Source: Polyangiales bacterium (lineage in GTDB: Bacteria; Myxococcota_A; Polyangia; Polyangiales; Ga0077539). From it: DNA of 64,000 bases. This document shows, piece after piece, positions 15,873 to 44,442 of this stretch. Every line of letters starts with the position of its first letter. Positions within the stretch are counted from its first letter, which is position 1. The position numbers were made by a program, and so were the translations under genes. The DNA is taken from assembly GCA_044229975.1 (NCBI GenBank), contig JBGARZ010000025.1, positions 64,001 to 128,000 of the forward strand. Reading direction: 5' to 3'. The notes under the pieces are model-generated. The model saw nothing but the letters and a program-made list of their open reading frames with translations, was not told the DNA's origin and did not search any database.

Positions 15873-16115
15873 GGCGCGTCCGCGGCGGTCGCGCGATCGA
15901 GCTCGACCCGCGCCCGCCGGGCGGCCTGATCGAGGTCGAGTGCGGTGAGCTCGTCGTCCCCGGCGCCGCGGTAGGCGTCGAGGAGTTCGAGCAGGGTCAT
16001 CTCGCCGCCCTGGTAGCCCGCGGTCGCGATGCGGACGAGGTCCGCCGACGCCGCCCGCGCGTCCTCGCGGAAGCGCCGGGCCGCGCGCACGAGACGAGTC
16101 GCCTCGGCGTGTAGC
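15869..16115 (-). pseudogene. 3' fragment of an IS-interrupted TolC-family outer-membrane factor
   Basis: LHAEATRL...YQGGEMTLLELLDA; in frame with the 5' fragment once the IS and one TSD copy are removed. Confidence 0.88.
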
Positions 16116-16287
16116 TGCGCTTGTCAAACACCTACCAACAAGAAATGGCGGACGTCCGTTGGCGCGGCCTGGCGAGCGCCTTGGCGTGACCGGCTGACGC
16201 TCGGGCGCTCGTTGGTTTTGGCGTCGCAGCGATCGCCGTCGAGCCCGTCGCCGTCGGGGTCGCCCACGGTGTGCGGGCGCCTCGCCG

Positions 16288-18183
16288 TCAGTGCAGCGCC
16301 ACGACCCGATCGACGATGAATCGCACGGCGTCCGCCCGCTCGCGGGGCGTGATGCGAAACGTGGCGTGAATCCTCCGCGAGAGGTTCTCGGTCAGGCTGG
16401 CGTGTTGCGCCCGCGGCTGGGCGCGCACGGTGTCGATGAGGACGAGCAGCCAGAAGCGCCGGTCGAGCACCGCGTCGATCTCGCAGGCGCGGTCGGCGAA
16501 GGCCTTCAGGCGGTCCCCGACGACCGGGAGGATCTGCTCGATGCGCACACGCTCGGTCTGCAGCGACGCGAGCATGCGGTCGCGCTGGGCCATCCGCTCG
16601 CGGAGCAGCGCCTCGCAGATTCGTTGTCCCTCGTTCTGGGCGGCGAGGTTCCTGACGATGCCGAGCAGGTAGCGCGCGTCGGTGTCGGCAGCGATCGTTC
16701 CGGTGGCGCGCTTGCCCTCGAAGATCGCGACGCCATCGACGATCGCGTCGAGCGGATAGCGCGCGAGGGCGATGCGGAGGCTGCGCTCCGGGTCGAGCAG
16801 CGCGAGCCGCTCGAAGGACCGATCGAGGTACGCGCGCACCTCGGGATCCTGCCGCGCCTCGAGCGTCTGTCGCGCGAGCTCCTGGCGGCGGCACCGCTCC
16901 GCGAGCGCCTTGCGCGCCTCGGCGATCTGCTCCGGCGTCGGCGTCTCCCCGTGGATCGTGACGCGCGAGCGACCGTCGCGATCCTTGCGCGGACGATGAT
17001 TGATCGTGCGGAAAAAGGTCGTGAGGACCAGCCGGAGGATCGATCGTGCGAGCGAGCGCGCGTCCTCTCCCTCGACGAGCAGCGGCGGCGCGGTCTGCTG
17101 GAAGAGCCCGAATCCACCTTCGATGTGCGCCTTGTTCTGCGGCCTCTCGGGGGTCGCGCGAATGCGCTCGGCACCATCGAGCGCACGATCCACCTCAGGC
17201 GCGTGGTTGCTCGGCTTGTTGTCCAGGAGCACCGCGAGCGGCAGCGGCGGCGCGGCGCTCGTCGTCGCCCTCGCGTCCGCCATCGCGAGGGCGACGGCTT
17301 CGCTGTCCTCCTGGTCGCCGAGCGACGCGCCGACGAAGGCGCCGCTGTACGGATCGACCAGCAACTCGAGGTTGAAGACGTGGCGCGCGCCGGAGAGTTC
17401 GAGCGCAACCTGCGAGCCGTCGCCGACCCACTGCGCGTCCGGGAAGAAGACCTCGAAGGCACCGCGCAGCGCACGCTCGTCGGGCGATCGTCCCTCGCGC
17501 CGAGCCGGCGTGCGAATCCCGCGCGCGGCGAGGATGGAGCTCACCAGCGTGGGGCCGTACGGGACGCGGCAGTCGGCTTTCAAGTACGCGCAGAAGTCCG
17601 AGAAGCCGCCGCGCCAGGTCTTCCACTCCGCGAGCACGGTCTCGAGATGCGTGAGCCGCGTGGCGCTCGTGTCGTTCTCCACGTCGCGCACCGGCTCGTC
17701 GGGTGGCGCGGTGATCGCTCCGGCACGCAGCCAGTCTTCGACGGTCTCCAGCGGCACCTCCACGGCCTCCGCGAAGCGTGCGAGAGGAAGATCCTCATGC
17801 GCGGCGTGCAGCTCCAGCACGCGGTGCCGGAAGGCATCGGTGTAGTGCCGCCGCCGGTCACCCCCGACGCACCCAGGATGCTCGAAGGTGAAGCGCAGCA
17901 TCGCCCGCGAGATGGAGAGCAGCTCCTCGCACGGGCCGCCGCATGGTGCCGTCTCCGCGACCGCTGGGCGCCCCGCAGGGCGTTGCAACGACGGCAGCGA
18001 GGCCACGAGCGCGTCGCGCAACTCATACGCCCGCGAGCGCGTGGCGCCGGTGGCCGCGAGGATCTCACCGACGGACGGGTGCGCGAGCGAGACCCGCCGA
18101 GCGTGCTCGGCGGACGCAAGAAGCAGGGCGGAGATCAGGAGCGGCGAGACGGACTCGCCGGACTCTGGTAGGTCGGAGCGCAC
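16288..18183 (-). CDS. DDE (rve-like) transposase B with long C-terminal helical region
   Basis: HTH (HYTDAFR..FAEAVEVPLETVEDW); QWVGD, LLVDPYSG, LLDNKPSN, PQNKAHIE, INHRP; RBS AAGGAG before GTG. Confidence 0.8.
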   Translation of the reverse strand: MRSDLPESGESVSPLLISALLLASAEHARRVSLAHPSVGEILAATGATRSRAYELRDALVASLPSLQRPAGRPAVAETAPCGGPCEELLSISRAMLRFTFEHPGCVGGDRRRHYTDAFRHRVLELHAAHEDLPLARFAEAVEVPLETVEDWLRAGAITAPPDEPVRDVENDTSATRLTHLETVLAEWKTWRGGFSDFCAYLKADCRVPYGPTLVSSILAARGIRTPARREGRSPDERALRGAFEVFFPDAQWVGDGSQVALELSGARHVFNLELLVDPYSGAFVGASLGDQEDSEAVALAMADARATTSAAPPLPLAVLLDNKPSNHAPEVDRALDGAERIRATPERPQNKAHIEGGFGLFQQTAPPLLVEGEDARSLARSILRLVLTTFFRTINHRPRKDRDGRSRVTIHGETPTPEQIAEARKALAERCRRQELARQTLEARQDPEVRAYLDRSFERLALLDPERSLRIALARYPLDAIVDGVAIFEGKRATGTIAADTDARYLLGIVRNLAAQNEGQRICEALLRERMAQRDRMLASLQTERVRIEQILPVVGDRLKAFADRACEIDAVLDRRFWLLVLIDTVRAQPRAQHASLTENLSRRIHATFRITPRERADAVRFIVDRVVALH

Positions 18184-18261
18184 GGTCTCCTTGTCTGGGT
18201 GGTGCGTTGCGGTGTCTGGAAACTTCGCAATACACGACCAGGGCGGGAGACCGCTTTCCTT

Positions 18262-19680
18262 TCAGGGGCGCAGCTCGATCAGCTTTCGGCCCATGAGCCA
18301 CACCTCGGGCACGCCGTCGCGGCTGGTGACCTTGAAGAGATCCAGCGATCGGGCGCGCAGGTCGATGCCGTCGCCGACGTCGCGCCCCGCGCCGGCTTCG
18401 ATGCGCGCGAGCACCTCGTCCACGCGGCCGTAGTAGCGGTCCGCGGGCACCAGCAGGCCGCCCAGCGCGTGGTGCGTGCGGCCGTGATTGTACCAGTGCA
18501 TGTGCGTGTCGAGCCGCCGCCGCATCTCGCCCACATCGGCGAAGCGCTGCACGTCGAACAGCTCCTTCGCGAGGTTGGCGTTGAAGACCTCGACCTTGCC
18601 GTTGTGCTCCTTGTCCACGGCGACGAGCTGGTCGATGCCGAGCTCCGTGAGCAGCGCCGTGAAGCGCGAGATGCCGTTCCACGCCCAGAACGCCGCGCCG
18701 CGGTCGTGCATCACCATCTCGGGCTTGCCGTACCGCGCGACGGCGCGCTCGAAGGTCCCGATCACCATGTCCGCGCGCTCCGCGTCGTCCACCCCGTGGC
18801 CCACGACGAAGCGCGAGTGGTCGTCGATCAGGATCAACGTGAACGTGTTCGCGCGGTGGATGTTGCGATGCACGAAATCGAGGTGCCAGAGGTGGTTCGG
18901 GCGCACGGCCTCGAAGCGTTGGATGTGCGGATGCCGCGCGACCTTCGGCGGCCGATAGCCCGCCTCCTCCATCACCCGCCGCGCCGTGTGGACGGAGACC
19001 TTCACGCTCTTGCGACGGAGCTGGTTGCGGATCTGGCTCGGCCCGAGGCCGGGGTGCCGGCTCCACTCGTCGAGGATCTCCTTGTCGCGCCGCGCCTCGA
19101 TCTCCTTGACGCCCGCACCGCTCGTCGGCGACGGGCCCTCGCCCTTCGCCGCGGCGCTGACCTTGCGCTGCCACTCGTAGATCGAGAACCGGCTCACTTT
19201 GAACTTCGTCGCCGACTCGGTGACGCTCTTCTCGGCGGCGTACTCGAGGATCTCCGCGCGCTCCGACGGCGTGTACGAACGCGCGACGGTCTTCGGCTTC
19301 GCCGCGGGCGTTGCGACGGCTTTGGCGGGGAGGCCCGTGGTGTCAGGCGACTTGTTGCCCGCCGACGACGGCGGCGCCGCCTTCGCCGACGCGGTGGACT
19401 TGCGCCGCGCGGGTGCCGCCTTCGCCTTCGCGATCACCACTGGCGGCGGCGGCGCGGCGGGCGCCGCGGGCGCCGTGGGCGTCTCGTCGCTGCTCGACGC
19501 CTTCGTGACCCCGGCAGCCTTCGCCCAGCGGAAGACGTTGGGGGCCGGAACGCCATGCTTCGCCGCCGCGGGCTTGCAGCCCAACGCCGGCACATCGGCG
19601 AGCACCACCGCGCGCTCCTCGGCTGTGTATCGCCGCCCTACGCTGCGTGGCAGCCGTTGCTCATCTCGCTTCTCGTCCAT
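18262..19680 (-). CDS. IS481/IS3-like DDE transposase A
   Basis: Two HTH repeats (YTAEER.., YTPSER..); PNHLWHLD, IDDHSRF, MHDRG, NGKVE, YNHGRTHHALG; RBS GGAGGAG. Confidence 0.9.
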   Translation of the reverse strand: MDEKRDEQRLPRSVGRRYTAEERAVVLADVPALGCKPAAAKHGVPAPNVFRWAKAAGVTKASSSDETPTAPAAPAAPPPPVVIAKAKAAPARRKSTASAKAAPPSSAGNKSPDTTGLPAKAVATPAAKPKTVARSYTPSERAEILEYAAEKSVTESATKFKVSRFSIYEWQRKVSAAAKGEGPSPTSGAGVKEIEARRDKEILDEWSRHPGLGPSQIRNQLRRKSVKVSVHTARRVMEEAGYRPPKVARHPHIQRFEAVRPNHLWHLDFVHRNIHRANTFTLILIDDHSRFVVGHGVDDAERADMVIGTFERAVARYGKPEMVMHDRGAAFWAWNGISRFTALLTELGIDQLVAVDKEHNGKVEVFNANLAKELFDVQRFADVGEMRRRLDTHMHWYNHGRTHHALGGLLVPADRYYGRVDEVLARIEAGAGRDVGDGIDLRARSLDLFKVTSRDGVPEVWLMGRKLIELRP

Positions 19681-19762
19681 CGTCTCCTCCAGCGATTTGA
19701 GGAGGTCTCCGAAGTCCGGAGTTTCAGGTCCTCAAACCGATGGAAGTTGTGCGGCAAGAGCA

Positions 19763-30853: not shown

Positions 30854-31435
30854 TCACGTAGCGACGCGTGCCCGCGTCCAGACCCACGCCCCTGCGCTCA
30901 CCACCATGGCGCCGCCAAGGAGCCCGGCGAACATACCCAGGGCCTCGCCCAGGAACAGCCCGCTGCACCGCACCGACCCGATCGACACCACGCCAAGCAG
31001 CATCCCGACCCCGGCGCGCGCTCGCTGCCCTGCGTCGCCGCGACGCGGGAGGAGCGCCGCGAGCACCACGCCGAGCGCGACGCCGGCGAGGGCGCAGGTG
31101 CCGGGTCGGGCGCAGCAGTTCTCGCAGACCATCATCCCCGGCGCGCAGCATGGGCGGAGCAGGGACATCGGGAGCAGGAGCGTCGCGAGGCCGCCGAGCA
31201 GGCCCACCTGCGCGCCCCGCAACCACCACCCCCGCCGCCACCCCAGGAAGGTCCAGGCGAGGACGAGGGGTATCAACGTCAGGGGTTGCAGTGCGACGCC
31301 CGTCACGCGCGCCGCGAGAGCCGCGAGCACGAGTACGACGAGCGCGCGCACGAGGCCGTCCCGCGCGAGGCCCCACTCGTAAGCCCGGCGGGCGCGGGCT
31401 TCGAGGGACGACGGGGCGGTCGGATCAGGGGTCAT
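30854..31435 (-). CDS. Multi-TM putative anti-sigma factor with Cys cluster
   Basis: Overlaps the ECF stop; about 6 TM; PCCAPGMMVCENCC..C loop. Confidence 0.65.
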   Translation of the reverse strand: MTPDPTAPSSLEARARRAYEWGLARDGLVRALVVLVLAALAARVTGVALQPLTLIPLVLAWTFLGWRRGWWLRGAQVGLLGGLATLLLPMSLLRPCCAPGMMVCENCCARPGTCALAGVALGVVLAALLPRRGDAGQRARAGVGMLLGVVSIGSVRCSGLFLGEALGMFAGLLGGAMVVSAGAWVWTRARVAT

Positions 31436-31961
31436 GGTCACCTCCCAGGAGGGCGCGGATTCGTGCGTAGGCGCGAGACAGTCGCTTGCGGTACGTGGCG
31501 GGAGCGATCGGCGGAGGAGCCGCCTCCCCGAGGAGGACGGCGACGGCCTCGGCCGATGTCGGGTCGAGCGCGTCCACGCATTGCTGGAGCGCCCGGCGCA
31601 GTTCGTGGTCGGCGAGCGCGTCGTCCGCCTGGGCTTCCGCGTTCGGGTGGTGCTCCGGCACGGCGCTCTCGACGGTGCGGGTGCGGCGGAGCTCAGCACG
31701 GACCTCGTTGGCCACCACGGCGTAGAACCAGGGCAACACCGGGCGGCCGGGGGTGAAGGCGGTGGCGCGGGTGAAGAGCTTGAGCATGGCGGCCTGTGCG
31801 ACCTCATCAGCGCGTGCGGGCTCCAAGCGTCGACCGGCCGCCCGGAGAGCGCGCGGGTGGAGCGCGCGGAACAGGGGCGTGAACGCTCCGCGCTCGCCCT
31901 CGCAAAGGCGGACCATCAGGTCGTCGAGCTCGGCCTCCGAGGCTTCGCGGGGCGGAGGCAC
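31425..31961 (-). CDS. ECF sigma factor
   Basis: sigma2 (ADEVAQAAMLK..F..PW..AVVANE) and short sigma4 (ATYRKRLSRA). Confidence 0.85.
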   Translation of the reverse strand: MPPPREASEAELDDLMVRLCEGERGAFTPLFRALHPRALRAAGRRLEPARADEVAQAAMLKLFTRATAFTPGRPVLPWFYAVVANEVRAELRRTRTVESAVPEHHPNAEAQADDALADHELRRALQQCVDALDPTSAEAVAVLLGEAAPPPIAPATYRKRLSRAYARIRALLGGDHDP

Positions 31962-31973
31962 GCGGGCGTCGGG

Positions 31974-32156
31974 TCAGCCTGCGCGGTGGCGGCCCTGGCA
32001 GCAGGGCGAGCCGGGGTGGCAGCAGGGCGAGCCGGGGTAGCAGCAGTCGCTGGCGCCCCGGGCGGCGCGAACGGCGACAACCGTCGCCCCGAGGCCCGTG
32101 GTGAGGGAGAGAGCCCCGAGGATCATGAGGGTCCGGGGAGAGAGCAGCTTCATCAT
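31974..32156 (-). CDS. Small exported peptide with CCxPGSP repeats
   Basis: RBS AGGAGG; signal-like N-terminus; DCCYPGSPCCHPGSPCCQG. Confidence 0.75.
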   Translation of the reverse strand: MMKLLSPRTLMILGALSLTTGLGATVVAVRAARGASDCCYPGSPCCHPGSPCCQGRHRAG

Positions 32157-32180
32157 GGGTAGAGACCTCCTGTCCCCCTG

Positions 32181-32207
32181 CTAGCCGTTCGGGCGGCGGC
32201 CGTGACC
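32181..32207 (-). promoter_or_regulatory. Putative ECF promoter GGTCAC-N17-CTAG
   Basis: Identical motif and spacing at 42662-42688 (-) and 43087-43113 (+). Confidence 0.65.
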
Positions 32208-32247: not shown

Positions 32248-32835
32248 CTACGTCGCCGGGGCGCAGGTGCAGTCGGCGCACCCGTCGTCCGCGCAGGACC
32301 CGCAGCAGGCCTGCACCCGCGCGCGGAGCGCCTCACGCGCCCGGAAGACCCGCACCGCGGCGTTGTTCGCGGTGATGCCCTCGGCCTCGGCGAAGTCCTT
32401 CACGCTCTGCCCCTCGACGGTCACCTGCCGGAGCGCCGCCGCGTACTCGGGCTTCATTGCGTCCGCCAGCCGCCCCACGCACGCGCAGGTGGTCGGCGCG
32501 AGGGCCGCCGGTGGCGGCGCCTCCGGCTCGTCCAGCTCCGCGGCCAGGGCGTCGAGCGCGCGGCCGTGGCTCGCGTCCCGGCGCCGACGGTCGATCACCG
32601 CGTTGCGCAGGATCCGGTAGAACCACGCGCGCGACGACTCGTCCTGCCGGAGCGAGGCGCCGTGGGTCACGCTGCGGGCGTAGGCGTCCTGGAGGATGTC
32701 CTCGGCCGCGGCGCGGTCGCCGAGGCGGCGCTCCAGGAAGGCGAGGAAGCTCGCGCGCGCGGCGAGCAGCGACTCGGTGACGTGGGCGTCCACGGGCCGG
32801 AGTCTAGCGCCGGCGGCGGGTACGGAGGGGGTCAC
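32248..32835 (-). CDS. CorE-like metal-responsive ECF sigma factor
   Basis: AEDILQD, WFYRILRN; CxC (CAC) between sigma2 and sigma4; C-terminal CCGSCADDGCADCTC; overlaps the copA stop. Confidence 0.85.
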   Translation of the reverse strand: MTPSVPAAGARLRPVDAHVTESLLAARASFLAFLERRLGDRAAAEDILQDAYARSVTHGASLRQDESSRAWFYRILRNAVIDRRRRDASHGRALDALAAELDEPEAPPPAALAPTTCACVGRLADAMKPEYAAALRQVTVEGQSVKDFAEAEGITANNAAVRVFRAREALRARVQACCGSCADDGCADCTCAPAT

Positions 32836-35183
32836 GGCGTCCACCGCCGCAGCCGAAGTGAGTTGAGCAGCACCGAGACGCTCGACAGCGACATCGCCGC
32901 GCTCGCGAAGACCGGCGAGAGCGACCAGCCCGTGACGGGTTCGAGTAGCCCCGCCGCGAGGGGGATGCCCACGAGGTTGTAGACGAAGGCCCAGAAGAGG
33001 TTCTGTCGGATCGTGCGCAGCGTGGCCCGCGCGAGCGCGAGCGCTGTCGGCACCGCCCCGACGCCGCCCCGCAGGATCGTCACGTCCGCGGCGGCCGCCG
33101 CGACGTCCGCGCCGCCGCCCATCGCCACGCCGAGGTCGGCCGCGGCCAACGCGGGCGCGTCGTTCACGCCGTCGCCCACCATCGCCACGTTGTGCCCCGC
33201 CGCGCGCAGCCGCGCCACCAGCACGGCCTTCTCCTCGGGGCGCACTTCCGCATGCACCTCGCCCACGCCCGCGGCGCGCGCGACCGTCAGCGCCGTCGCC
33301 CGCCGGTCGCCCGTCGCCATCGCCACGGAAACGCCCATCGCCGTCAACGCGGCCACGGTCGCGGCGGCCTCGGGGCGCACCGTGTCGGCCACCGTCACGA
33401 GGCCCGCGAGGGCGCCGTCGATGGCCACGAACACGGGCGTCTCACCCCGGCCCGCGGCCGCGGCTGCGGCGGGCTCCAGCGCGTCGGCGGCGACCCCCTG
33501 CGACGCCAGCCAGCGGGCCGTGCCGACAGACACGAGAGACGCGCCGACGCGCGACCGCACGCCCCCTCCAGGGGTCGCCGTGAAGTCCGTCGCGGTGACG
33601 GCTGTCAGGCCCTGCGCGGCGGCGCCCGCGACGATGGCGCGCGCCACGGGGTGTTCGCTCCCCGCCTCTGCGGCGGCCGCCAGCGCGAGCAGCTCGTCGT
33701 CGCGGCGGCCGCCTACGGGGAGTACCCGCGCGAGGGCCATCCGGCCCAGCGTGAGGGTGCCCGTCTTGTCGAAGAGCACCTGATCGATCTTCGAGGCGCG
33801 CTCCAGGGCCTCGCCGCCCTTCACCAGCAGCCCGAGGGCGGCCGCGCGGCTCGTGCCCACGGCGACGGCCGCGGGCGTGGCGAGCCCGAGCGCGCAGGGG
33901 CAGGCGATCACCAGCACGGCGACGGCCGCGGGCGTGGCGAGCCCGAGCGCGCAGGGGCAGGCGATCACCAGCACCGCGACGAAGTGCTCGACCGCGGCGG
34001 CCAGTCCGTCGGACCCGCGCGGGAGCACCATCCACGCGGCGAAGGTGAGTCCGGCGAACGCGACCACCGTCGGCACGAACACCGCGCTCACCCGATCGGC
34101 GAGGCGGGCGATGGGTGCGCGCGTGCCCTGAGCTTCGGAGACGGCGTCCACGATGCGCGCGACGGCCGACTCGGTGCCCCGGCGCGTCACCTCGATCACG
34201 AGGCTGCCGCCCTCGACCAGCGTCCCGCCCTGCACGGGGTCGCCGGAGCCGCGCTCCACGGGCACGCTCTCGCCCGTGAGCATCGACTCGTCCACAGCGG
34301 CCTGACCCTCCACGACCGTCCCGTCGGTCGGGACGCGCTGCCCGGGTCGCACGCGTACCCGGTCGCCCGGGAGCAGGGAGCCCACCGTCACCTCGATCTC
34401 GGCCCCGCCCCGCAGGCGCGTCGCGCTCGGCGGCTGGAGGGCCACGAGGCCGCGCACCGCGTCCCCGAGGCGCCGACGCGCGCGCCGCTCCAGGGCCTTG
34501 CCCAGCAGCATGAACGCGACGATCGCCCCGGCCGCCTCGAAGTACACCGGGACGTGGCCGTGCTCGCCGTGCGGGAGCAGGCGCGGCACGAAGGTCACCG
34601 CCGCCGACCAGCCCCAGGCGGTGAGGGCGCCGAGCGCGACGAGGACGTTCATGTCGGCGCTCCGGTGGCGCAGCGCCGCGACCGCGAGGCGGAGGAAGCG
34701 GCGGCCGGGGCCGAAGACCACCGCCGTCGCCAGTGCGAGCTGGAGGTAGCGCCCGGCGGCGCCCGCGGTCCCCGGGATCGCGCCGTGCGACATCCCGACG
34801 ACCAGGAGCGGCACAGCCAGGGCCGCAGCCACGATCAGGTCGCGCCGGTCGCGGCGGGCGTCGGCTTCTTCGGCGGCGTCGATGCGTGCGAGTCGGGTCG
34901 CGCCATCGGGCGGGGCCTCGCCCGCCGCGGGCACGTCGGGGACCTCGTAGCCCGCCCCGCGAATCGCCTCGGCGAGGGCCTCCGGGGCCGTCGCGGTGGG
35001 GTCGTAGTCGATCGTCGCGTGTTGGCTGGCGAGGTTCACCCGCGCGTCGAGCACGCCCGGGGCGCGCCCGAGCACGCGCTCGATGCGGCCGACGCAGGCC
35101 GCGCAGGTCATGCCGAGCACCGCGAACTGCACGCGCGTCGGGTCGGCGGGAAGGGACAGGGGGTTCGCGAGCGAGGATGTCAT
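32832..35183 (-). CDS. copA: Cu(I)-translocating P1B-type ATPase with duplicated CPC helix
   Basis: GMTCAAC, TGES, CPC, DKTGT, SEHP, GDGVND, YN..MSLSS. Confidence 0.93.
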   Translation of the reverse strand: MTSSLANPLSLPADPTRVQFAVLGMTCAACVGRIERVLGRAPGVLDARVNLASQHATIDYDPTATAPEALAEAIRGAGYEVPDVPAAGEAPPDGATRLARIDAAEEADARRDRRDLIVAAALAVPLLVVGMSHGAIPGTAGAAGRYLQLALATAVVFGPGRRFLRLAVAALRHRSADMNVLVALGALTAWGWSAAVTFVPRLLPHGEHGHVPVYFEAAGAIVAFMLLGKALERRARRRLGDAVRGLVALQPPSATRLRGGAEIEVTVGSLLPGDRVRVRPGQRVPTDGTVVEGQAAVDESMLTGESVPVERGSGDPVQGGTLVEGGSLVIEVTRRGTESAVARIVDAVSEAQGTRAPIARLADRVSAVFVPTVVAFAGLTFAAWMVLPRGSDGLAAAVEHFVAVLVIACPCALGLATPAAVAVLVIACPCALGLATPAAVAVGTSRAAALGLLVKGGEALERASKIDQVLFDKTGTLTLGRMALARVLPVGGRRDDELLALAAAAEAGSEHPVARAIVAGAAAQGLTAVTATDFTATPGGGVRSRVGASLVSVGTARWLASQGVAADALEPAAAAAAGRGETPVFVAIDGALAGLVTVADTVRPEAAATVAALTAMGVSVAMATGDRRATALTVARAAGVGEVHAEVRPEEKAVLVARLRAAGHNVAMVGDGVNDAPALAAADLGVAMGGGADVAAAAADVTILRGGVGAVPTALALARATLRTIRQNLFWAFVYNLVGIPLAAGLLEPVTGWSLSPVFASAAMSLSSVSVLLNSLRLRRWTP
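33858..33974. repeat. Perfect 57-bp tandem duplication inside copA
   Basis: Units 33858-33914 and 33915-33971 are identical; encode VLVIACPCALGLATPAAVA twice. Confidence 0.95.
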
Positions 35184-40571: not shown

Positions 40572-41156
40572 TCAGGGAAGGACGCGGACCACGCCCGCCA
40601 TCCCGACGTGTCCGTGGGTGTTGCAGTAGAACGGGTAGAACCCGGCGCCGGGGAAGGTCACCGCGTAGGTCGTCCCCACGCGCTGCGCGTCGATGGGGCT
40701 CGGGGTTGTGGCGCCCGCGCTCGACCCGTGCGGCACGCCGGGGATCAGCGGGTGCGTGGTGAAGCTCATCGAGAAGGTCACCGACTGCCCGGTACGGATG
40801 GTGAGACAGCGCGGCGTGTAGCCCGTGGTGCCGCGGGGTACCACCGTGCGCTCGGCGTCGTCGGCGCTGCGGTCTACGTAGTTCGCGGCCCGGCAGTCGT
40901 TGAGCAGGGGCACTACCGTCGAAGCGTCCGCAACTGTCCCCGCGTCGGTCGCGGCATCCTGGTCGGTGGTCGCGACGTCGACGGCTGTCGGCTGGTCCGT
41001 GGCGGTGCCGACGTCGGTCGTCCCAACGTCCGAAGTCCCGACGTCGGCCGCGTCGTGACCCTCGTGGGCGGCCGCGTCGGTCGTGTCGTGTGCCATGTCG
41101 CCGCAGCCGGCGAACAGAGGAAACAGGGCGAGGACGAGGGTCATTCGAGCGGGCAT
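40572..41156 (-). CDS. Cupredoxin (plastocyanin/halocyanin-like) lipoprotein
   Basis: Lipobox FAGC; type-1 Cu ligands HP...YCNTH...M. Confidence 0.85.
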   Translation of the reverse strand: MPARMTLVLALFPLFAGCGDMAHDTTDAAAHEGHDAADVGTSDVGTTDVGTATDQPTAVDVATTDQDAATDAGTVADASTVVPLLNDCRAANYVDRSADDAERTVVPRGTTGYTPRCLTIRTGQSVTFSMSFTTHPLIPGVPHGSSAGATTPSPIDAQRVGTTYAVTFPGAGFYPFYCNTHGHVGMAGVVRVLP

Positions 41157-41191: not shown

Positions 41192-42616
41192 TCAGGGCTC
41201 CACGCGGACGGTGGCCATCATCCCGTGCTCGATGTGCTCAAGGATGTGGCAGTGGTACATCCAGTGGCCGGGGCGCTCGTCGGGGCGGAACGCGATGCGC
41301 ACCCGCTCCTTGCCACGCAGCTGGATCGTGTCCTCCCACGAGCGCTCGGCCTCGTCCGCGCCGTTGCGCGACACGACCTGGAAGAAGAACCCGTGCAGGT
41401 GGAACGGGTGCTCCATCTCGCTCGCGTTGACGAGGTCCCACACCTCGGTGTTGCCCACGCGCGCGACGACGTCCGGCACGTCCGGGTAGGACCGGTCGTT
41501 GATGGTGAACACCACCTGCTCGCGGTCGCGATCGATGTACTCGTTGAAGGTCACCGTGCGCGGCGCGATGCCTGCCGTGACCAGCGGCTCGACCCGTATG
41601 CGGGGCGCGGGGGCGGCGAGTGTTGGCAACGCCGAGTCGGGCGCGTAGCGGAGCCGCAGGACGTCCGCCGCCTCGGTGAGACCAGCGCCGTGGCCGCGGG
41701 CGTAGGGGAGGTTGCGCAGGGGCGCGGTCGTGCCCGGGCTGCCGACGCCGTCCACCAGGACGTCGAGGCGATCGCCAGGGACGAGAAAGAGCTCGTCGGA
41801 CGTGCGTGGTGTCGCGACGGACCCTCCGTCGGTCCCCACCACGGTGAAGCGGTGCCCCGGGAGAGCGAGGCGGTAGAAGCGGGCGCTGCCGGCGTTCACG
41901 ACGCGCCACCGCTGCCGCTGGCCCGCGCGGATCGGCAGCTCCGCGCCCGCGCGTCCGTTGACGAGCGAGACGGGACCCTCCCTGCCGCTGTGCTGCTCGA
42001 CGAGGTCCCCGGTGGGCGCGATCTCCCCGTCCGACCCGACCAGGAGGTCGTCGAGCATGACGACGCCCTCGACGTCTGCGCGGGGTTCATGGTCGCCGCG
42101 CACCACGACCGCGCCGTAGAGGCCGCGCTCCATCTGTACGCTCTCGGTGACGTGCGGGTGGTACCAGAAGGTCCCCGCGTCCGGAACGGTGAAGCGGTAC
42201 TCGAAGCTCGCGCCGGGGGCGACGGGCGGCTGCGAGTGGGGGCTGCCGTCCATCGACGCAGGCACCCGCACGCCGTGCCAGTGGATCGTCGTCGGCTGGT
42301 CGAGCCGGTTGGTGAAGTGCACGACCACGGTGTCCCCGGCGCGCGCCTCGATCGTGGGCCCGGGGACCATGCCGTTGTAGGTCATCGCTCGGACGCGCCG
42401 ACCCGGCGAGTACTCCCACTGACCGAAGCGCGCTTCGAGGTCGATCTCGACGACGCGCGGATCGGGGTTGCGGTCGGCGGCGGGCTCGACGCGGAGCGCC
42501 GCGGCCCAGGGGTCGGGGCCGGTGCGAGGCGCAGGCGGTGCCTCGGGGGCGTCGCCGCAGCCGACAGCTACGAACAGCGCGGAGAGGGTCCAGCGGAGGT
42601 GGGGCGCGAGAGGCAT
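41192..42616 (-). CDS. Three-domain multicopper oxidase lipoprotein
   Basis: HWHG, WYHPH, HPFHLHG, HCHILEH...M. Confidence 0.93.
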   Translation of the reverse strand: MPLAPHLRWTLSALFVAVGCGDAPEAPPAPRTGPDPWAAALRVEPAADRNPDPRVVEIDLEARFGQWEYSPGRRVRAMTYNGMVPGPTIEARAGDTVVVHFTNRLDQPTTIHWHGVRVPASMDGSPHSQPPVAPGASFEYRFTVPDAGTFWYHPHVTESVQMERGLYGAVVVRGDHEPRADVEGVVMLDDLLVGSDGEIAPTGDLVEQHSGREGPVSLVNGRAGAELPIRAGQRQRWRVVNAGSARFYRLALPGHRFTVVGTDGGSVATPRTSDELFLVPGDRLDVLVDGVGSPGTTAPLRNLPYARGHGAGLTEAADVLRLRYAPDSALPTLAAPAPRIRVEPLVTAGIAPRTVTFNEYIDRDREQVVFTINDRSYPDVPDVVARVGNTEVWDLVNASEMEHPFHLHGFFFQVVSRNGADEAERSWEDTIQLRGKERVRIAFRPDERPGHWMYHCHILEHIEHGMMATVRVEP

Positions 42617-42661: not shown

Positions 42662-42688
42662 CTAGCCGCCAGGGCCGGAGGTGTGACC
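42662..42688 (-). promoter_or_regulatory. Putative ECF promoter GGTCAC-N17-CTAG
   Basis: One of three identical motifs; about 45 bp upstream of the oxidase. Confidence 0.65.
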
Positions 42689-43086: not shown

Positions 43087-43113
43087 GGTCACGAAACGTC
43101 GCGGCGGAACTAG
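43087..43113 (+). promoter_or_regulatory. Putative ECF promoter GGTCAC-N17-CTAG
   Basis: One of three identical motifs; about 60 bp upstream of the MNIO precursor. Confidence 0.65.
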
Positions 43114-43173: not shown

Positions 43174-43605
43174 ATGAACAAAGAGACCCGAGCGAAGTTG
43201 CTGGTGATGGTATCCGCGGCCTTTGGGGTCGCCGCGGTGGAGGGCTGCGCGAGCAACCCGTCCATGATGGCGCAGCCGCCCGCAAGCTCGCAGTCGGCTG
43301 ACCCCGCACCCGCCACGACGCCTGCGCCCGCCGCGCAGGTCGGCACCGGTCCGACGCAGACCCCGAGCTCGACGGCCCCTGCGCCCGCCTCGGCCCCACA
43401 GGGAGCGGCCACGGGTCAGGCCATGAGCTGCGGCCAGGACGGCAACTGCGGCGCGCACATGGGCTCCTCGTCGTCGCCCGCACCGGGCACCACGGCGGCC
43501 CAGCCGACCCCGACGGCGGCCCCGACGCCGGCCACCACACCGACGACGGCTCCCGCCACGGCTCCAGCAACGGCGCGGCCCCACCAACACAACCACGCAC
43601 ACTGA
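43174..43605 (+). CDS. Putative MNIO precursor: lipoprotein with SCGQDGNCG core and His tail
   Basis: RBS AAGGAG; lipobox VEGC; P/A/T linkers; directly upstream of DUF692. Confidence 0.75.
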   Translation: MNKETRAKLLVMVSAAFGVAAVEGCASNPSMMAQPPASSQSADPAPATTPAPAAQVGTGPTQTPSSTAPAPASAPQGAATGQAMSCGQDGNCGAHMGSSSSPAPGTTAAQPTPTAAPTPATTPTTAPATAPATARPHQHNHAH

Positions 43606-43608
43606 TCG

Positions 43609-44442
43609 ATGGCGCACGTCGAGGGCGTCGGCCTGGGCCTGCGGGCCCCGCTGTTTCGCGACCTGATGTCGCGGGCGCCCGCGGCGTTGCGCTGGGTCGA
43701 GGTCTCTCCCGAGAACCATCTCGGGCGCGGCGGCTTCTTCGAGGCGATGCTGGCGGAGACCCGCGCGCGCTACCCGGTGGTGACGCACGGCGTAAGCCTC
43801 GGGCTCGGCGACCGCGAGCCGCCAGCGCGCGACCTGCTGCGCGCGATGCGGGGCTTCCTCGAAGCCGTGCAGACCCCCTGGCACAGCGATCATCTGTGCT
43901 TCGGCGCGGTCGACGGCGCCCACCTCCACGACCTCCTTCCCCTACCGTTGACCGAAGAGAGCGTCGGTCGTGTGGTGGACCGGGTTCGGCTGCTCGAAGA
44001 CGCGCTCGGTCTCCCCATCGCCGTCGAGAACATCTCCTGGTACGCGCACCCCGGCGAGGCGGAGATGGACGAGGCCGACTTCCTCGGCGAGATCACCGCG
44101 CGCAGCGGCGCCCTCCTCCTGCTCGACGTCAACAACGCCTACGTCAACGCGCGCAACCGCGGGGGAGACGCGCGGGAGTTCATCCGTCGCATCCCGGCCG
44201 ACCGTGTGGTGCAGATGCACGTCGCCGGGCACCTCGTGGCCGCCGACGGGTTTCGCCTCGATACGCACGGCGAGGCTGTCTGCGACGATGTGTACGGGCT
44301 GCTCGCGTACACCCTGTCGCGCACTGGGCCCGTGCCGGTTCTGTTGGAGAGAGACGGCGGCTTTCCCCCGTGGGACGAGCTCGTCGCGGAGCTCGAACGA
44401 CTCGACGCCATCGTCCGCGCTTCAACACAGGCAGCGCCTTGA
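43609..44442 (+). CDS. DUF692 multinuclear non-heme iron oxidative enzyme (MNIO)
   Basis: GVGLGLR, EVSPEN, HGVSL, SDHL, LLPLP, EN, LLLDVNNAYVN, HVAGH, DTHG, LLERD. Confidence 0.95.
   Translation: MAHVEGVGLGLRAPLFRDLMSRAPAALRWVEVSPENHLGRGGFFEAMLAETRARYPVVTHGVSLGLGDREPPARDLLRAMRGFLEAVQTPWHSDHLCFGAVDGAHLHDLLPLPLTEESVGRVVDRVRLLEDALGLPIAVENISWYAHPGEAEMDEADFLGEITARSGALLLLDVNNAYVNARNRGGDAREFIRRIPADRVVQMHVAGHLVAADGFRLDTHGEAVCDDVYGLLAYTLSRTGPVPVLLERDGGFPPWDELVAELERLDAIVRASTQAAP

Follow-up and report, generated by a model that had tools for sequence, protein, structure and literature searches.

A cysteine-heptad peptide encoded ahead of a myxobacterial ECF sigma factor is a candidate metallothionein-like sponge facing the periplasm

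Results

A cysteine-dense peptide gene in a heavy-metal island

The window (the whole 64,000-nucleotide stretch of Polyangiales DNA that was analysed) is a heavy-metal island that carries genes for RND efflux, CDF, ChrA-like and BlaI/M56 proteins, a Cu-type P1B ATPase, a CorE-like sigma factor, CopZ, multicopper oxidases, a cupredoxin and an MNIO cluster, with some of these names resting on a reading of the translations. Within this island, genes for a 60-residue peptide, an ECF sigma factor and a six-helix membrane protein follow one another on the minus strand (Table 1).

Table 1. Features of the window, given by coordinates, and classes of related loci, given by locus name
Feature	Position or loci	Strand	Remarks
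60-aa peptide ORF	31974..32156	-	Basic N-terminus, hydrophobic helix, Cys core, His-containing tail
Ribosome-binding site AGGAGG	32166..32171	-	5' of the first ATG of the peptide gene
21-bp tandem repeat	31996..32046		Encodes the CC-x-PG-[SA]-[PA] heptads of the peptide
ECF sigma factor, 178 aa	31425..31961	-	Sigma70_r2, E 8e-8
Predicted anti-sigma factor/sensor, 193 aa	30854..31435	-	Six predicted membrane helices; conserved Cys, predicted periplasmic
Predicted ECF promoter GGTCAC-N17-CTAG	32181..32207	-	Before the peptide operon
Second motif site GGTCAC-N17-CTAA	36772..36798	+	Before an operon for a lipoprotein, an outer-membrane efflux protein and a multicopper oxidase (oxidase named by blastn/tblastn context)
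Third motif site GGTCAC-N17-CTAG	42662..42688	-	Before multicopper oxidase 41192-42616 and cupredoxin 40572-41156
Fourth motif site GGTCAC-N17-CTAG	43087..43113	+	Before the MNIO cluster
MNIO cluster	Precursor 43174-43605, MNIO 43609-44442, partner to 45170	+	Own lipoprotein-type precursor
Upstream context	32248..35183	-	Cu-type P1B ATPase 32832-35183 and CorE-like ECF 32248-32844; outside the conserved module
Arsenite methyltransferases with CCYPGSPCC and further CC pairs	L301, L308, L318, L319, L321, L322, L324, L325, L327, L330, L333, L102, L106, L111		
Upstream Cys-rich ORF	L044:9627-9938, L086:9607-9951, L046:9567-9941, L050, L079, L085, L109, L110		
CxC-type slot peptides	L212, L213, L215, L229, L235, L236, L238-L242, L244-L246, L250		
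134-142-aa slot protein	L219:564-989, L220:2267-2668, L221, L222, L225:2348-2761		

The original prediction had singled out the peptide ORF for its strong ribosome-binding site, and an AGGAGG sequence indeed lies 9 nt before its ATG and is retained in the seven close homologues compared. The core of the peptide, DCCYPGSPCCHPGSPCCQG, comprises 24 residues, six of them Cys (25%), in the proposed three CC pairs at 7-residue spacing, and the 21-bp DNA repeat held to underlie them is present at 2.4 copies with 96% match. Its unit is a heptad with a CC pair, as proposed, but follows the looser form CC-x-P-G-[SA]-[PA] rather than strictly CCxPGSP. The pattern CC-x5-CC-x5-CC occurs only four times in a six-frame translation of the genome, twice in the peptide gene and its paralogue, which argues against a chance origin. 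Among the seven close homologues, the N-terminal region drifts; in the core, 20 codon differences are synonymous and 14 non-synonymous, and no Cys codon is among them. This conservation is better evidence for a gene than the codon-position test, in which the third-position lead is only modest, and, judged by its sequence, the ORF is a real gene. Expression was not demonstrated in five RNA runs that contained only 4-5% of the words. Contigs from relatives span the ORF in runs X1, X2 and X5; since every one of the 30 bins is covered in X1 and X2, DNA carry-over is possible, and these contigs do not count as evidence of expression.

Contig C29 (about 65-104 kb) carries most of the island again, at 76-95% identity. 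This second copy includes the peptide (93% identical), the ECF, the membrane protein and the MNIO cluster; it may be a real duplicate or stem from a related strain in the bin. The P1B ATPase and the CorE-like ECF upstream adjoin the peptide only in the source genus, with a CorE-like match 1.8 kb away in one other locus. A scan for sigma-70 promoters and terminators found none, and read-through from copA-corE may therefore occur. In three loci of close relatives (L032-L034), an opposite-strand gene for a Tat-signal protein, which by a reading of its translation resembles Fe/Mn superoxide dismutase, lies between the CorE-like sigma factor and the peptide. A 57-bp tandem duplication at 33858-33981 doubles a CPC-containing membrane segment of the P1B ATPase; the C29 copy apparently lacks it, and the difference may be real or an assembly error. 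Further away, a 3.6-kb two-ORF element at 16115-19762, identical (100%) to copies on contigs C11 and C38, splits an apparently single outer-membrane efflux gene and is a probable insertion sequence; its ends match several contig breaks.

The peptide core is predicted to face the periplasm

A basic n-region followed by a hydrophobic h-region is present in 89/89 three-CC peptides, and the best 15-residue hydropathy mean is 1.97 in this group and 1.71 in the type to which the window peptide belongs. In the myxobacterial alignment, the N-terminal region conserves nothing except charge and hydrophobicity. None of 138 peptides has a Tat motif, and the three-CC peptides lack a lipobox. A loose regular expression for AxA near the core matched 24/82 myxobacterial-type and 1/8 Bacteroidota-type peptides, and the window peptide has no AxA after its hydrophobic stretch. 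Of the earlier claim that the peptide is exported, N-in/C-out targeting is thus supported and cleavage is not. By these sequence criteria, the core very probably faces the periplasm, cleavage of the signal is doubtful, and the peptide may stay tethered to the membrane. An AlphaFold2 model of low confidence (mean pLDDT 62, pTM 0.26) places a helix at residues 7-35 and coil at residues 36-60.

An ECF sigma factor and a six-helix membrane protein without a family name

The ECF gene and the gene for a membrane protein with a Cys loop were found where the original prediction had placed them, downstream of the peptide gene. Region 4 of the ECF escapes detection by Pfam, as it does across this ECF family. 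Compared with the consensus, it appears throughout the family to be about 7 residues short and to lack the first helix of the helix-turn-helix motif but not its recognition helix. The membrane protein has no Pfam or NCBIfam family; its AlphaFold2 model contains six helices (pLDDT 85), and a fold search with this model returned generic helical matches only, with a best Z of 7.8. Lys and Arg are enriched in its N-terminus, loops 2 and 4 and C-terminus and Cys lies in loops 3 and 5, a distribution that predicts a periplasmic position for the Cys residues. Its Cys loop reads PCCAPGMMVCENCC, and C114 and C157 are invariant in the alignment. Gene order suggests that the protein acts as an anti-sigma factor, and we refer to it as the sensor; its profile matches in 135/401 genomes of the order.

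Promoter, peptide, ECF and sensor form a conserved module

Among 49 distinct myxobacterial peptides, the ECF is directly next in 47 and the six-helix Cys protein is found in 45; the peptide is always the first gene of the operon. The flanking genes vary, and the conserved unit is thus promoter-peptide-ECF-sensor. A motif of the form (G/T)GTCAC-N16-18-C(C/T)A lies within 90 nt upstream of 45/49 peptides and in 105/15,872 background windows of 90 nt (0.7%); its conserved form is (G/T)GTCAC-N17/18-CTA. The site before the window operon is probably autoregulatory. The motif also directly precedes ECF/sensor pairs that lack the peptide, from which we infer that it belongs to the ECF of the module and not to the upstream CorE-like sigma factor, a link that is based on gene order.

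GTCAC-N17-CTAG occurs at seven sites in the 10-Mb genome, six of them within the two island copies, and a relaxed motif at 18 sites. In five genomes of the source genus, the motif stands before MNIO precursors in three and before oxidases in four. In 15 genomes of other genera, no motif site precedes an MNIO precursor, the promoter of the module is the only site in four (4/10 genomes of one search set) and a strict site is missing in three; a few sites, out of many that resemble chance, precede genes for efflux proteins or lipoproteins. Since genome-wide counts do not exceed those of a reversed-pattern control in most genomes, the evidence from the motif is positional only. At a minimum, the output predicted for the switch and conserved across genera therefore comes down to the gene that opens its own operon. 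On the contig of the window, about 11 kb outside it, lies a paralogous ECF/sensor pair (L247, G000:C31:52210-53266), the third in the source genome; it is of a second type and without cargo, has a variant of the motif and could read the same promoters.

A peptide family that extends beyond the myxobacteria

A single-sequence search with the peptide recovered 17 clusters, and a 41-row profile 561 protein clusters of 30-139 aa; in the order, a profile of the peptide matches in 56/401 genomes (three of them weak, with E above 1e-4; the unpublished G723 included). Pattern scans returned 80 genome and 80 metagenome loci, from which false or mis-extracted loci (L093, L111, L137), one with a wrong start (L128), one without an ORF (L326), ArsM proteins and duplicates were excluded before counting. 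The six Cys, P48 and G49 are invariant across 41 aligned homologues of 25-73% identity. The peptide has no Pfam or NCBIfam match at E 0.05, and the named clusters among the 120 of 561 listed are hypothetical or uncharacterised. The 41-row profile matched no PDB chain at E 1, and a query of the ESM Atlas returned two unnamed clusters (0.76-0.77) that are no more than leads. No publication on the CC-heptad family was found in the largely open-access literature covered.

By record title, carriers belong to Myxococcota, Bacteroidota, Planctomycetota, Abditibacterium, Vulcanimicrobiota and Akkermansia; one carrier in culture is Labilithrix luteola DSM 27648 (L069). Across the family, the number of CC pairs ranges from 3 to 15: the Myxococcota form has three and a His tail, with a His after the last pair in 81/82 myxobacterial-type peptides, the Bacteroidota form is mostly 47-50 aa long, and the Planctomycetota form has 5-15 pairs. 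In one Akkermansia record (L072:183-743), a single ORF joins CC heptads with EF-hand repeats and His-rich stretches, which parallels the EGKCG/EF-hand bufferin chimaeras described in the accessible part of PMC12452194.

Metal links of the family and the question of redox chemistry

Outside the myxobacteria, domain fusions and neighbours tie the family to metal. A copper-chaperone HMA domain (PF00403) is present in 12/17 longer homologues, with the fusion confirmed in L054, L057, L080 and L085. HMBD lipoproteins neighbour the peptide in three Bacteroidota loci and CopA in two Planctomycetota loci, and a Csp-like gene (below the cut-off) lies two genes from one Planctomycetota member. Metal-resistance genes, searched with seeds from the window, were found in 6/28 myxobacterial and 10/28 other loci as against 17/521 background tiles, a comparison in which the background is a single genome and related loci are not independent. 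Most loci are thus situated outside metal islands. Within about 10 kb, 22/28 myxobacterial loci have no recognisable metal gene, and the identity of the metal is thus not fixed by context. The nonapeptide CCYPGSPCC also ends the Cys tail of arsenite methyltransferases at 14 loci (two were tested, both above the cut-off); these tails, like the heptad statistics, come out of a pattern search in which the motif itself was the selection criterion. The tails look like one lineage, and convergence is possible. Bacteroidota and Planctomycetota members are often immediately preceded by a Cys-rich ORF of 100-170 aa without a Pfam match, which is reminiscent of the DUF2946-type leader ORFs found in metal-regulated operons.

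In an oxidising periplasm, free thiols may be converted to disulfides. The peptide could be a thiol-redox buffer or a disulfide-stapled mini-protein, in which CC pairs oxidised to vicinal or cross disulfides would serve as an oxidant sink or as a folded ligand. The predicted location and the even number of Cys in the six-Cys forms are compatible with such a role, and ECF16/NrsF-type systems also answer oxidative stress, as stated in the accessible part of PMC7826278. By contrast, thiolates of metals or metalloids are suggested by the HMA fusions, the metal-gene neighbours and the ArsM tail, which is cytoplasmic; a range of 3 to 15 CC pairs is easier to reconcile with a capacity that can be scaled than with a single fixed disulfide fold, and the nearly constant His after the last pair also speaks against redox chemistry, which we consider an improbable main function. 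On the basis of its sequence and relatives, it is instead likely that the three CC pairs of the peptide bind soft metal ions, with Cu(I) as the most probable one.

Other cargoes can take the first place in the operon

The sensor profile also identifies about 90 loci without an adjacent peptide match, 40 of which were sampled. All 40 contain the ECF. In 15/40 of these more distant sensor loci, the slot of the peptide is occupied by an unrelated CxC peptide of 38-63 aa with a signal-like N-terminus, 6-9 Cys and 27-43% Cys in its core; AxA is present in 15/15 by the loose expression used above. One CxC peptide scores weakly on Metallothio_2 (E 0.034). As a group, these peptides resemble exported metallothioneins even more than the CC peptide does. 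Another 5/40 loci have an exported protein of 134-142 aa with two conserved Cys and no Pfam or NCBIfam match, 12/40 are cargo-less, the ECF gene coming straight after the motif, and the other 8/40 were not classed. The presence of two unrelated Cys-dense peptides in one slot suggests a shared chemical job rather than a specific ligand.

These replacements bear on the earlier proposal that the peptide is a signalling partner of the anti-sigma factor, that is, a tethered co-sensor that would capture metal, pass it to the Cys loop of the sensor or bind there, and control release of the ECF. Its invariable first place in the operon is consistent with such a role, as are the rarity of AxA (24/82, as against every CxC peptide) and the longer N-region, which fit an anchored protein. 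Moreover, the main clade of 25 ECFs is entirely of the CC type, and its sensors also have CC loops. However, the ECF/sensor pair occurs with CxC peptides, with the 134-142-aa protein or without cargo, CC peptides occur with a second sensor type too, and the Bacteroidota and Planctomycetota peptides have no such ECF or sensor alongside. In a quick ECF tree of 63 rows, cargo type is clustered, the CC label requires at least two changes, and one supported clade mixes five CC cargoes with one CxC cargo. A complex prediction for peptide and sensor (alignments A3 and A4), which scored 0.02 against a mark of 0.32, weighs neither way. Since the pair exists with another cargo or none and the peptide exists without the pair, an obligate role in signalling is disfavoured; an accessory relay is possible, and the co-sensor explanation as a whole appears unlikely.

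The neighbouring MNIO has its own precursor

The MNIO gene starts 11.5 kb from the peptide, and its product matches PF05114 at 299 bits and the bufferin-clade model NF050167 at 271 bits (cut-off 310), which makes it bufferin-clade-like by sequence. Upstream of it lies a precursor of 143 aa that is rich in Pro, Ala and Thr and has a lipobox-like Cys, one CGxxGxCG and a His-rich end; it has no Pfam or NCBIfam match. An MNIO cluster on contig C19 (MNIO 92% identical) has no motif in the region examined. The original prediction held that the MNIO shares the promoter motif of the peptide operon and might modify the peptide in trans; the product would be a bufferin-like metallophore. The shared motif was confirmed for the source genus, where G365, G476 and G501 have it before the MNIO cluster as in the source genome, and was not seen beyond it, with no site at 30 other myxobacterial MNIO loci sampled, about a third of them from sensor-positive genomes. 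Stand-alone precursors and multi-substrate MNIOs are described in the accessible part of PMC12452194, and they would accommodate a distant substrate. The proposed check of co-occurrence with DUF692 gave 55/56 peptide-positive genomes of the order that list an MNIO, but it is uninformative since 360/401 genomes of the order (the unpublished G723, G732 and G479 included) have one.

Other observations speak against modification in trans. The peptide gene does not directly precede the MNIO gene, which already has its adjacent precursor, and the peptide matches neither DUF2282 nor other curated precursor models. No peptide-bearing locus of L001-L140 and L254-L333 has an MNIO match, and neither does any of 56 long peptide loci, whose flanks of at most 10 kb would miss the source-genus clusters at 11-20 kb. 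Among non-myxobacterial carrier genomes, whose completeness is not given, 11/15 (an isolate and a single-chromosome assembly among them) yielded no MNIO, and the CC heptad is absent from the MNIO precursor families in the accessible part of PMC12452194. Absence of an MNIO from these carriers and from the peptide loci examined indicates that modification is not needed for the family. The peptide may be modified opportunistically in the source genus; as an explanation of what the peptide is for, the MNIO-substrate hypothesis is very unlikely.

Discussion

We favour, with somewhat better than even confidence and on the basis of sequence comparisons, the reading that the peptide is an unmodified, metallothionein-like sponge that faces the periplasm and is produced from an autoregulated ECF operon under a membrane Cys sensor of periplasmic metal. 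The chelator function put forward in the original prediction is well supported by the HMA fusions, the replacement by CxC peptides in the slot, the copper genes in the predicted regulon and the metal-gene neighbours. What is observed is the arrangement of genes and motif sites, the conservation and the fusions; these features would accommodate anti-sigma activity, induction, metal binding and a metal identity in the following scheme. Through a cytoplasmic helix at its N-terminus, the membrane protein would keep the ECF inactive. Metal binding at the periplasmic Cys loop of this protein, or thiol oxidation driven there by metal, would free the ECF, which would then transcribe its own operon and yield the peptide in bulk. 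With its N-terminus inside and its C-terminus outside, and often left uncleaved and tethered in the myxobacterial type, the peptide would wrap metal with its thiolates and tail His, lower free periplasmic copper and thus damp the sensor by negative feedback. For the switch, it would be a payload rather than a requirement.

Few bacterial metallothioneins, SmtA and MymT among them, are reviewed in the accessible part of PMC7558416. Like MymT of Mycobacterium tuberculosis, which binds Cu(I), and SmtA/BmtA, as portrayed there, the peptide is tiny, Cys-dense and easily left unannotated, has a core that may be unstructured, as its low-confidence model suggests, and is tied to metal-stress genes. Unlike them, it has an N-terminal export or anchor segment and a core that is predicted to be periplasmic, is built of CC-x-PG heptads, and is associated with an ECF, not with a repressor in the cytoplasm; it has no Pfam metallothionein match. 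Csp1 and Csp2 are exported, unmodified Cys-rich copper sinks, as proposed here for the peptide, but, as pre-folded four-helix bundles, they measure about 140 aa and leave the cytoplasm by the Tat pathway (PMC11672702, accessible part), whereas the peptide has a 24-aa core and no Tat motif.

The switch most closely recalls the SigF-NrsF (ECF16)/bufferin system of Caulobacter as described in the accessible parts of PMC11626156, PMC7826278 and PMC8224329, which likewise combines an autoregulated ECF with a six-helix membrane protein containing periplasmic Cys, features that are recognised here from sequence. The likeness extends to the copper context and to a predicted regulon in which an exported Cys peptide and an MNIO cluster both occur. 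The modelled sensor shows the layout given for NrsF/OsrA in the accessible part of PMC7826278, with six helices, periplasmic Cys and a gene right after that of the ECF. However, it has no PF06532 (DUF1109) match, although the true NrsF of this genome does, and hhalign against the latter gave a probability of 0.1, a weak test with a single-sequence template. The GTCAC/CTAG motif of the module also differs from the GTAACC/CGTA promoter of ECF16, whose partner is DUF1109, as far as the accessible text of these sources goes, and the conserved payload is a peptide without a modifying enzyme in its operon.

Metal-responsive ECF control is also known from myxobacteria, in CorE/CorE2 of Myxococcus xanthus (ECF238; PMC8999054, accessible part), and the upstream gene 32248-32844, with its CxC linker and Cys-rich tail beside the P1B ATPase, resembles these proteins. 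According to the same part of PMC8999054, CorE has no anti-sigma factor and senses cytoplasmic metal; the ECF of the module has no Cys tail. By analogy, then, the peptide may work like a metallothionein under a SigF-NrsF-like switch while belonging to no named metallothionein, bufferin or NrsF family.

It is tempting to view these peptides as a cross-phylum family of periplasm-facing metallothioneins, built of scalable CC-x-PG-[SA]-[PA] heptads with 3 to 15 CC pairs in free, tethered or CopZ-like-fused form, which in myxobacteria would be the payload of an unnamed ECF/six-helix Cys-sensor family with an interchangeable CC/CxC slot, and thus an enzyme-free counterpart of the SigF-NrsF-bufferin copper defence. 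We regard the case for this wider view as evenly balanced. Periplasmic copper sinks have been credited to folded chaperones, Csps and enzyme-modified peptides such as bufferins. To our knowledge, metallothionein-like proteins are not normally described outside the cytoplasm, and no account of a periplasmic metallothionein was found in the largely open-access literature covered. The unmodified 24-residue core can be synthesised and would provide a cheap test of metal-thiolate clusters in an oxidising periplasm, and the natural series of 3 to 15 CC pairs, together with the CxC alternatives, would allow comparisons of capacity and selectivity. Moreover, the analysis defines an unannotated ECF/sensor family, with a predicted promoter, that extends through about a third of the genomes of the order that were searched.
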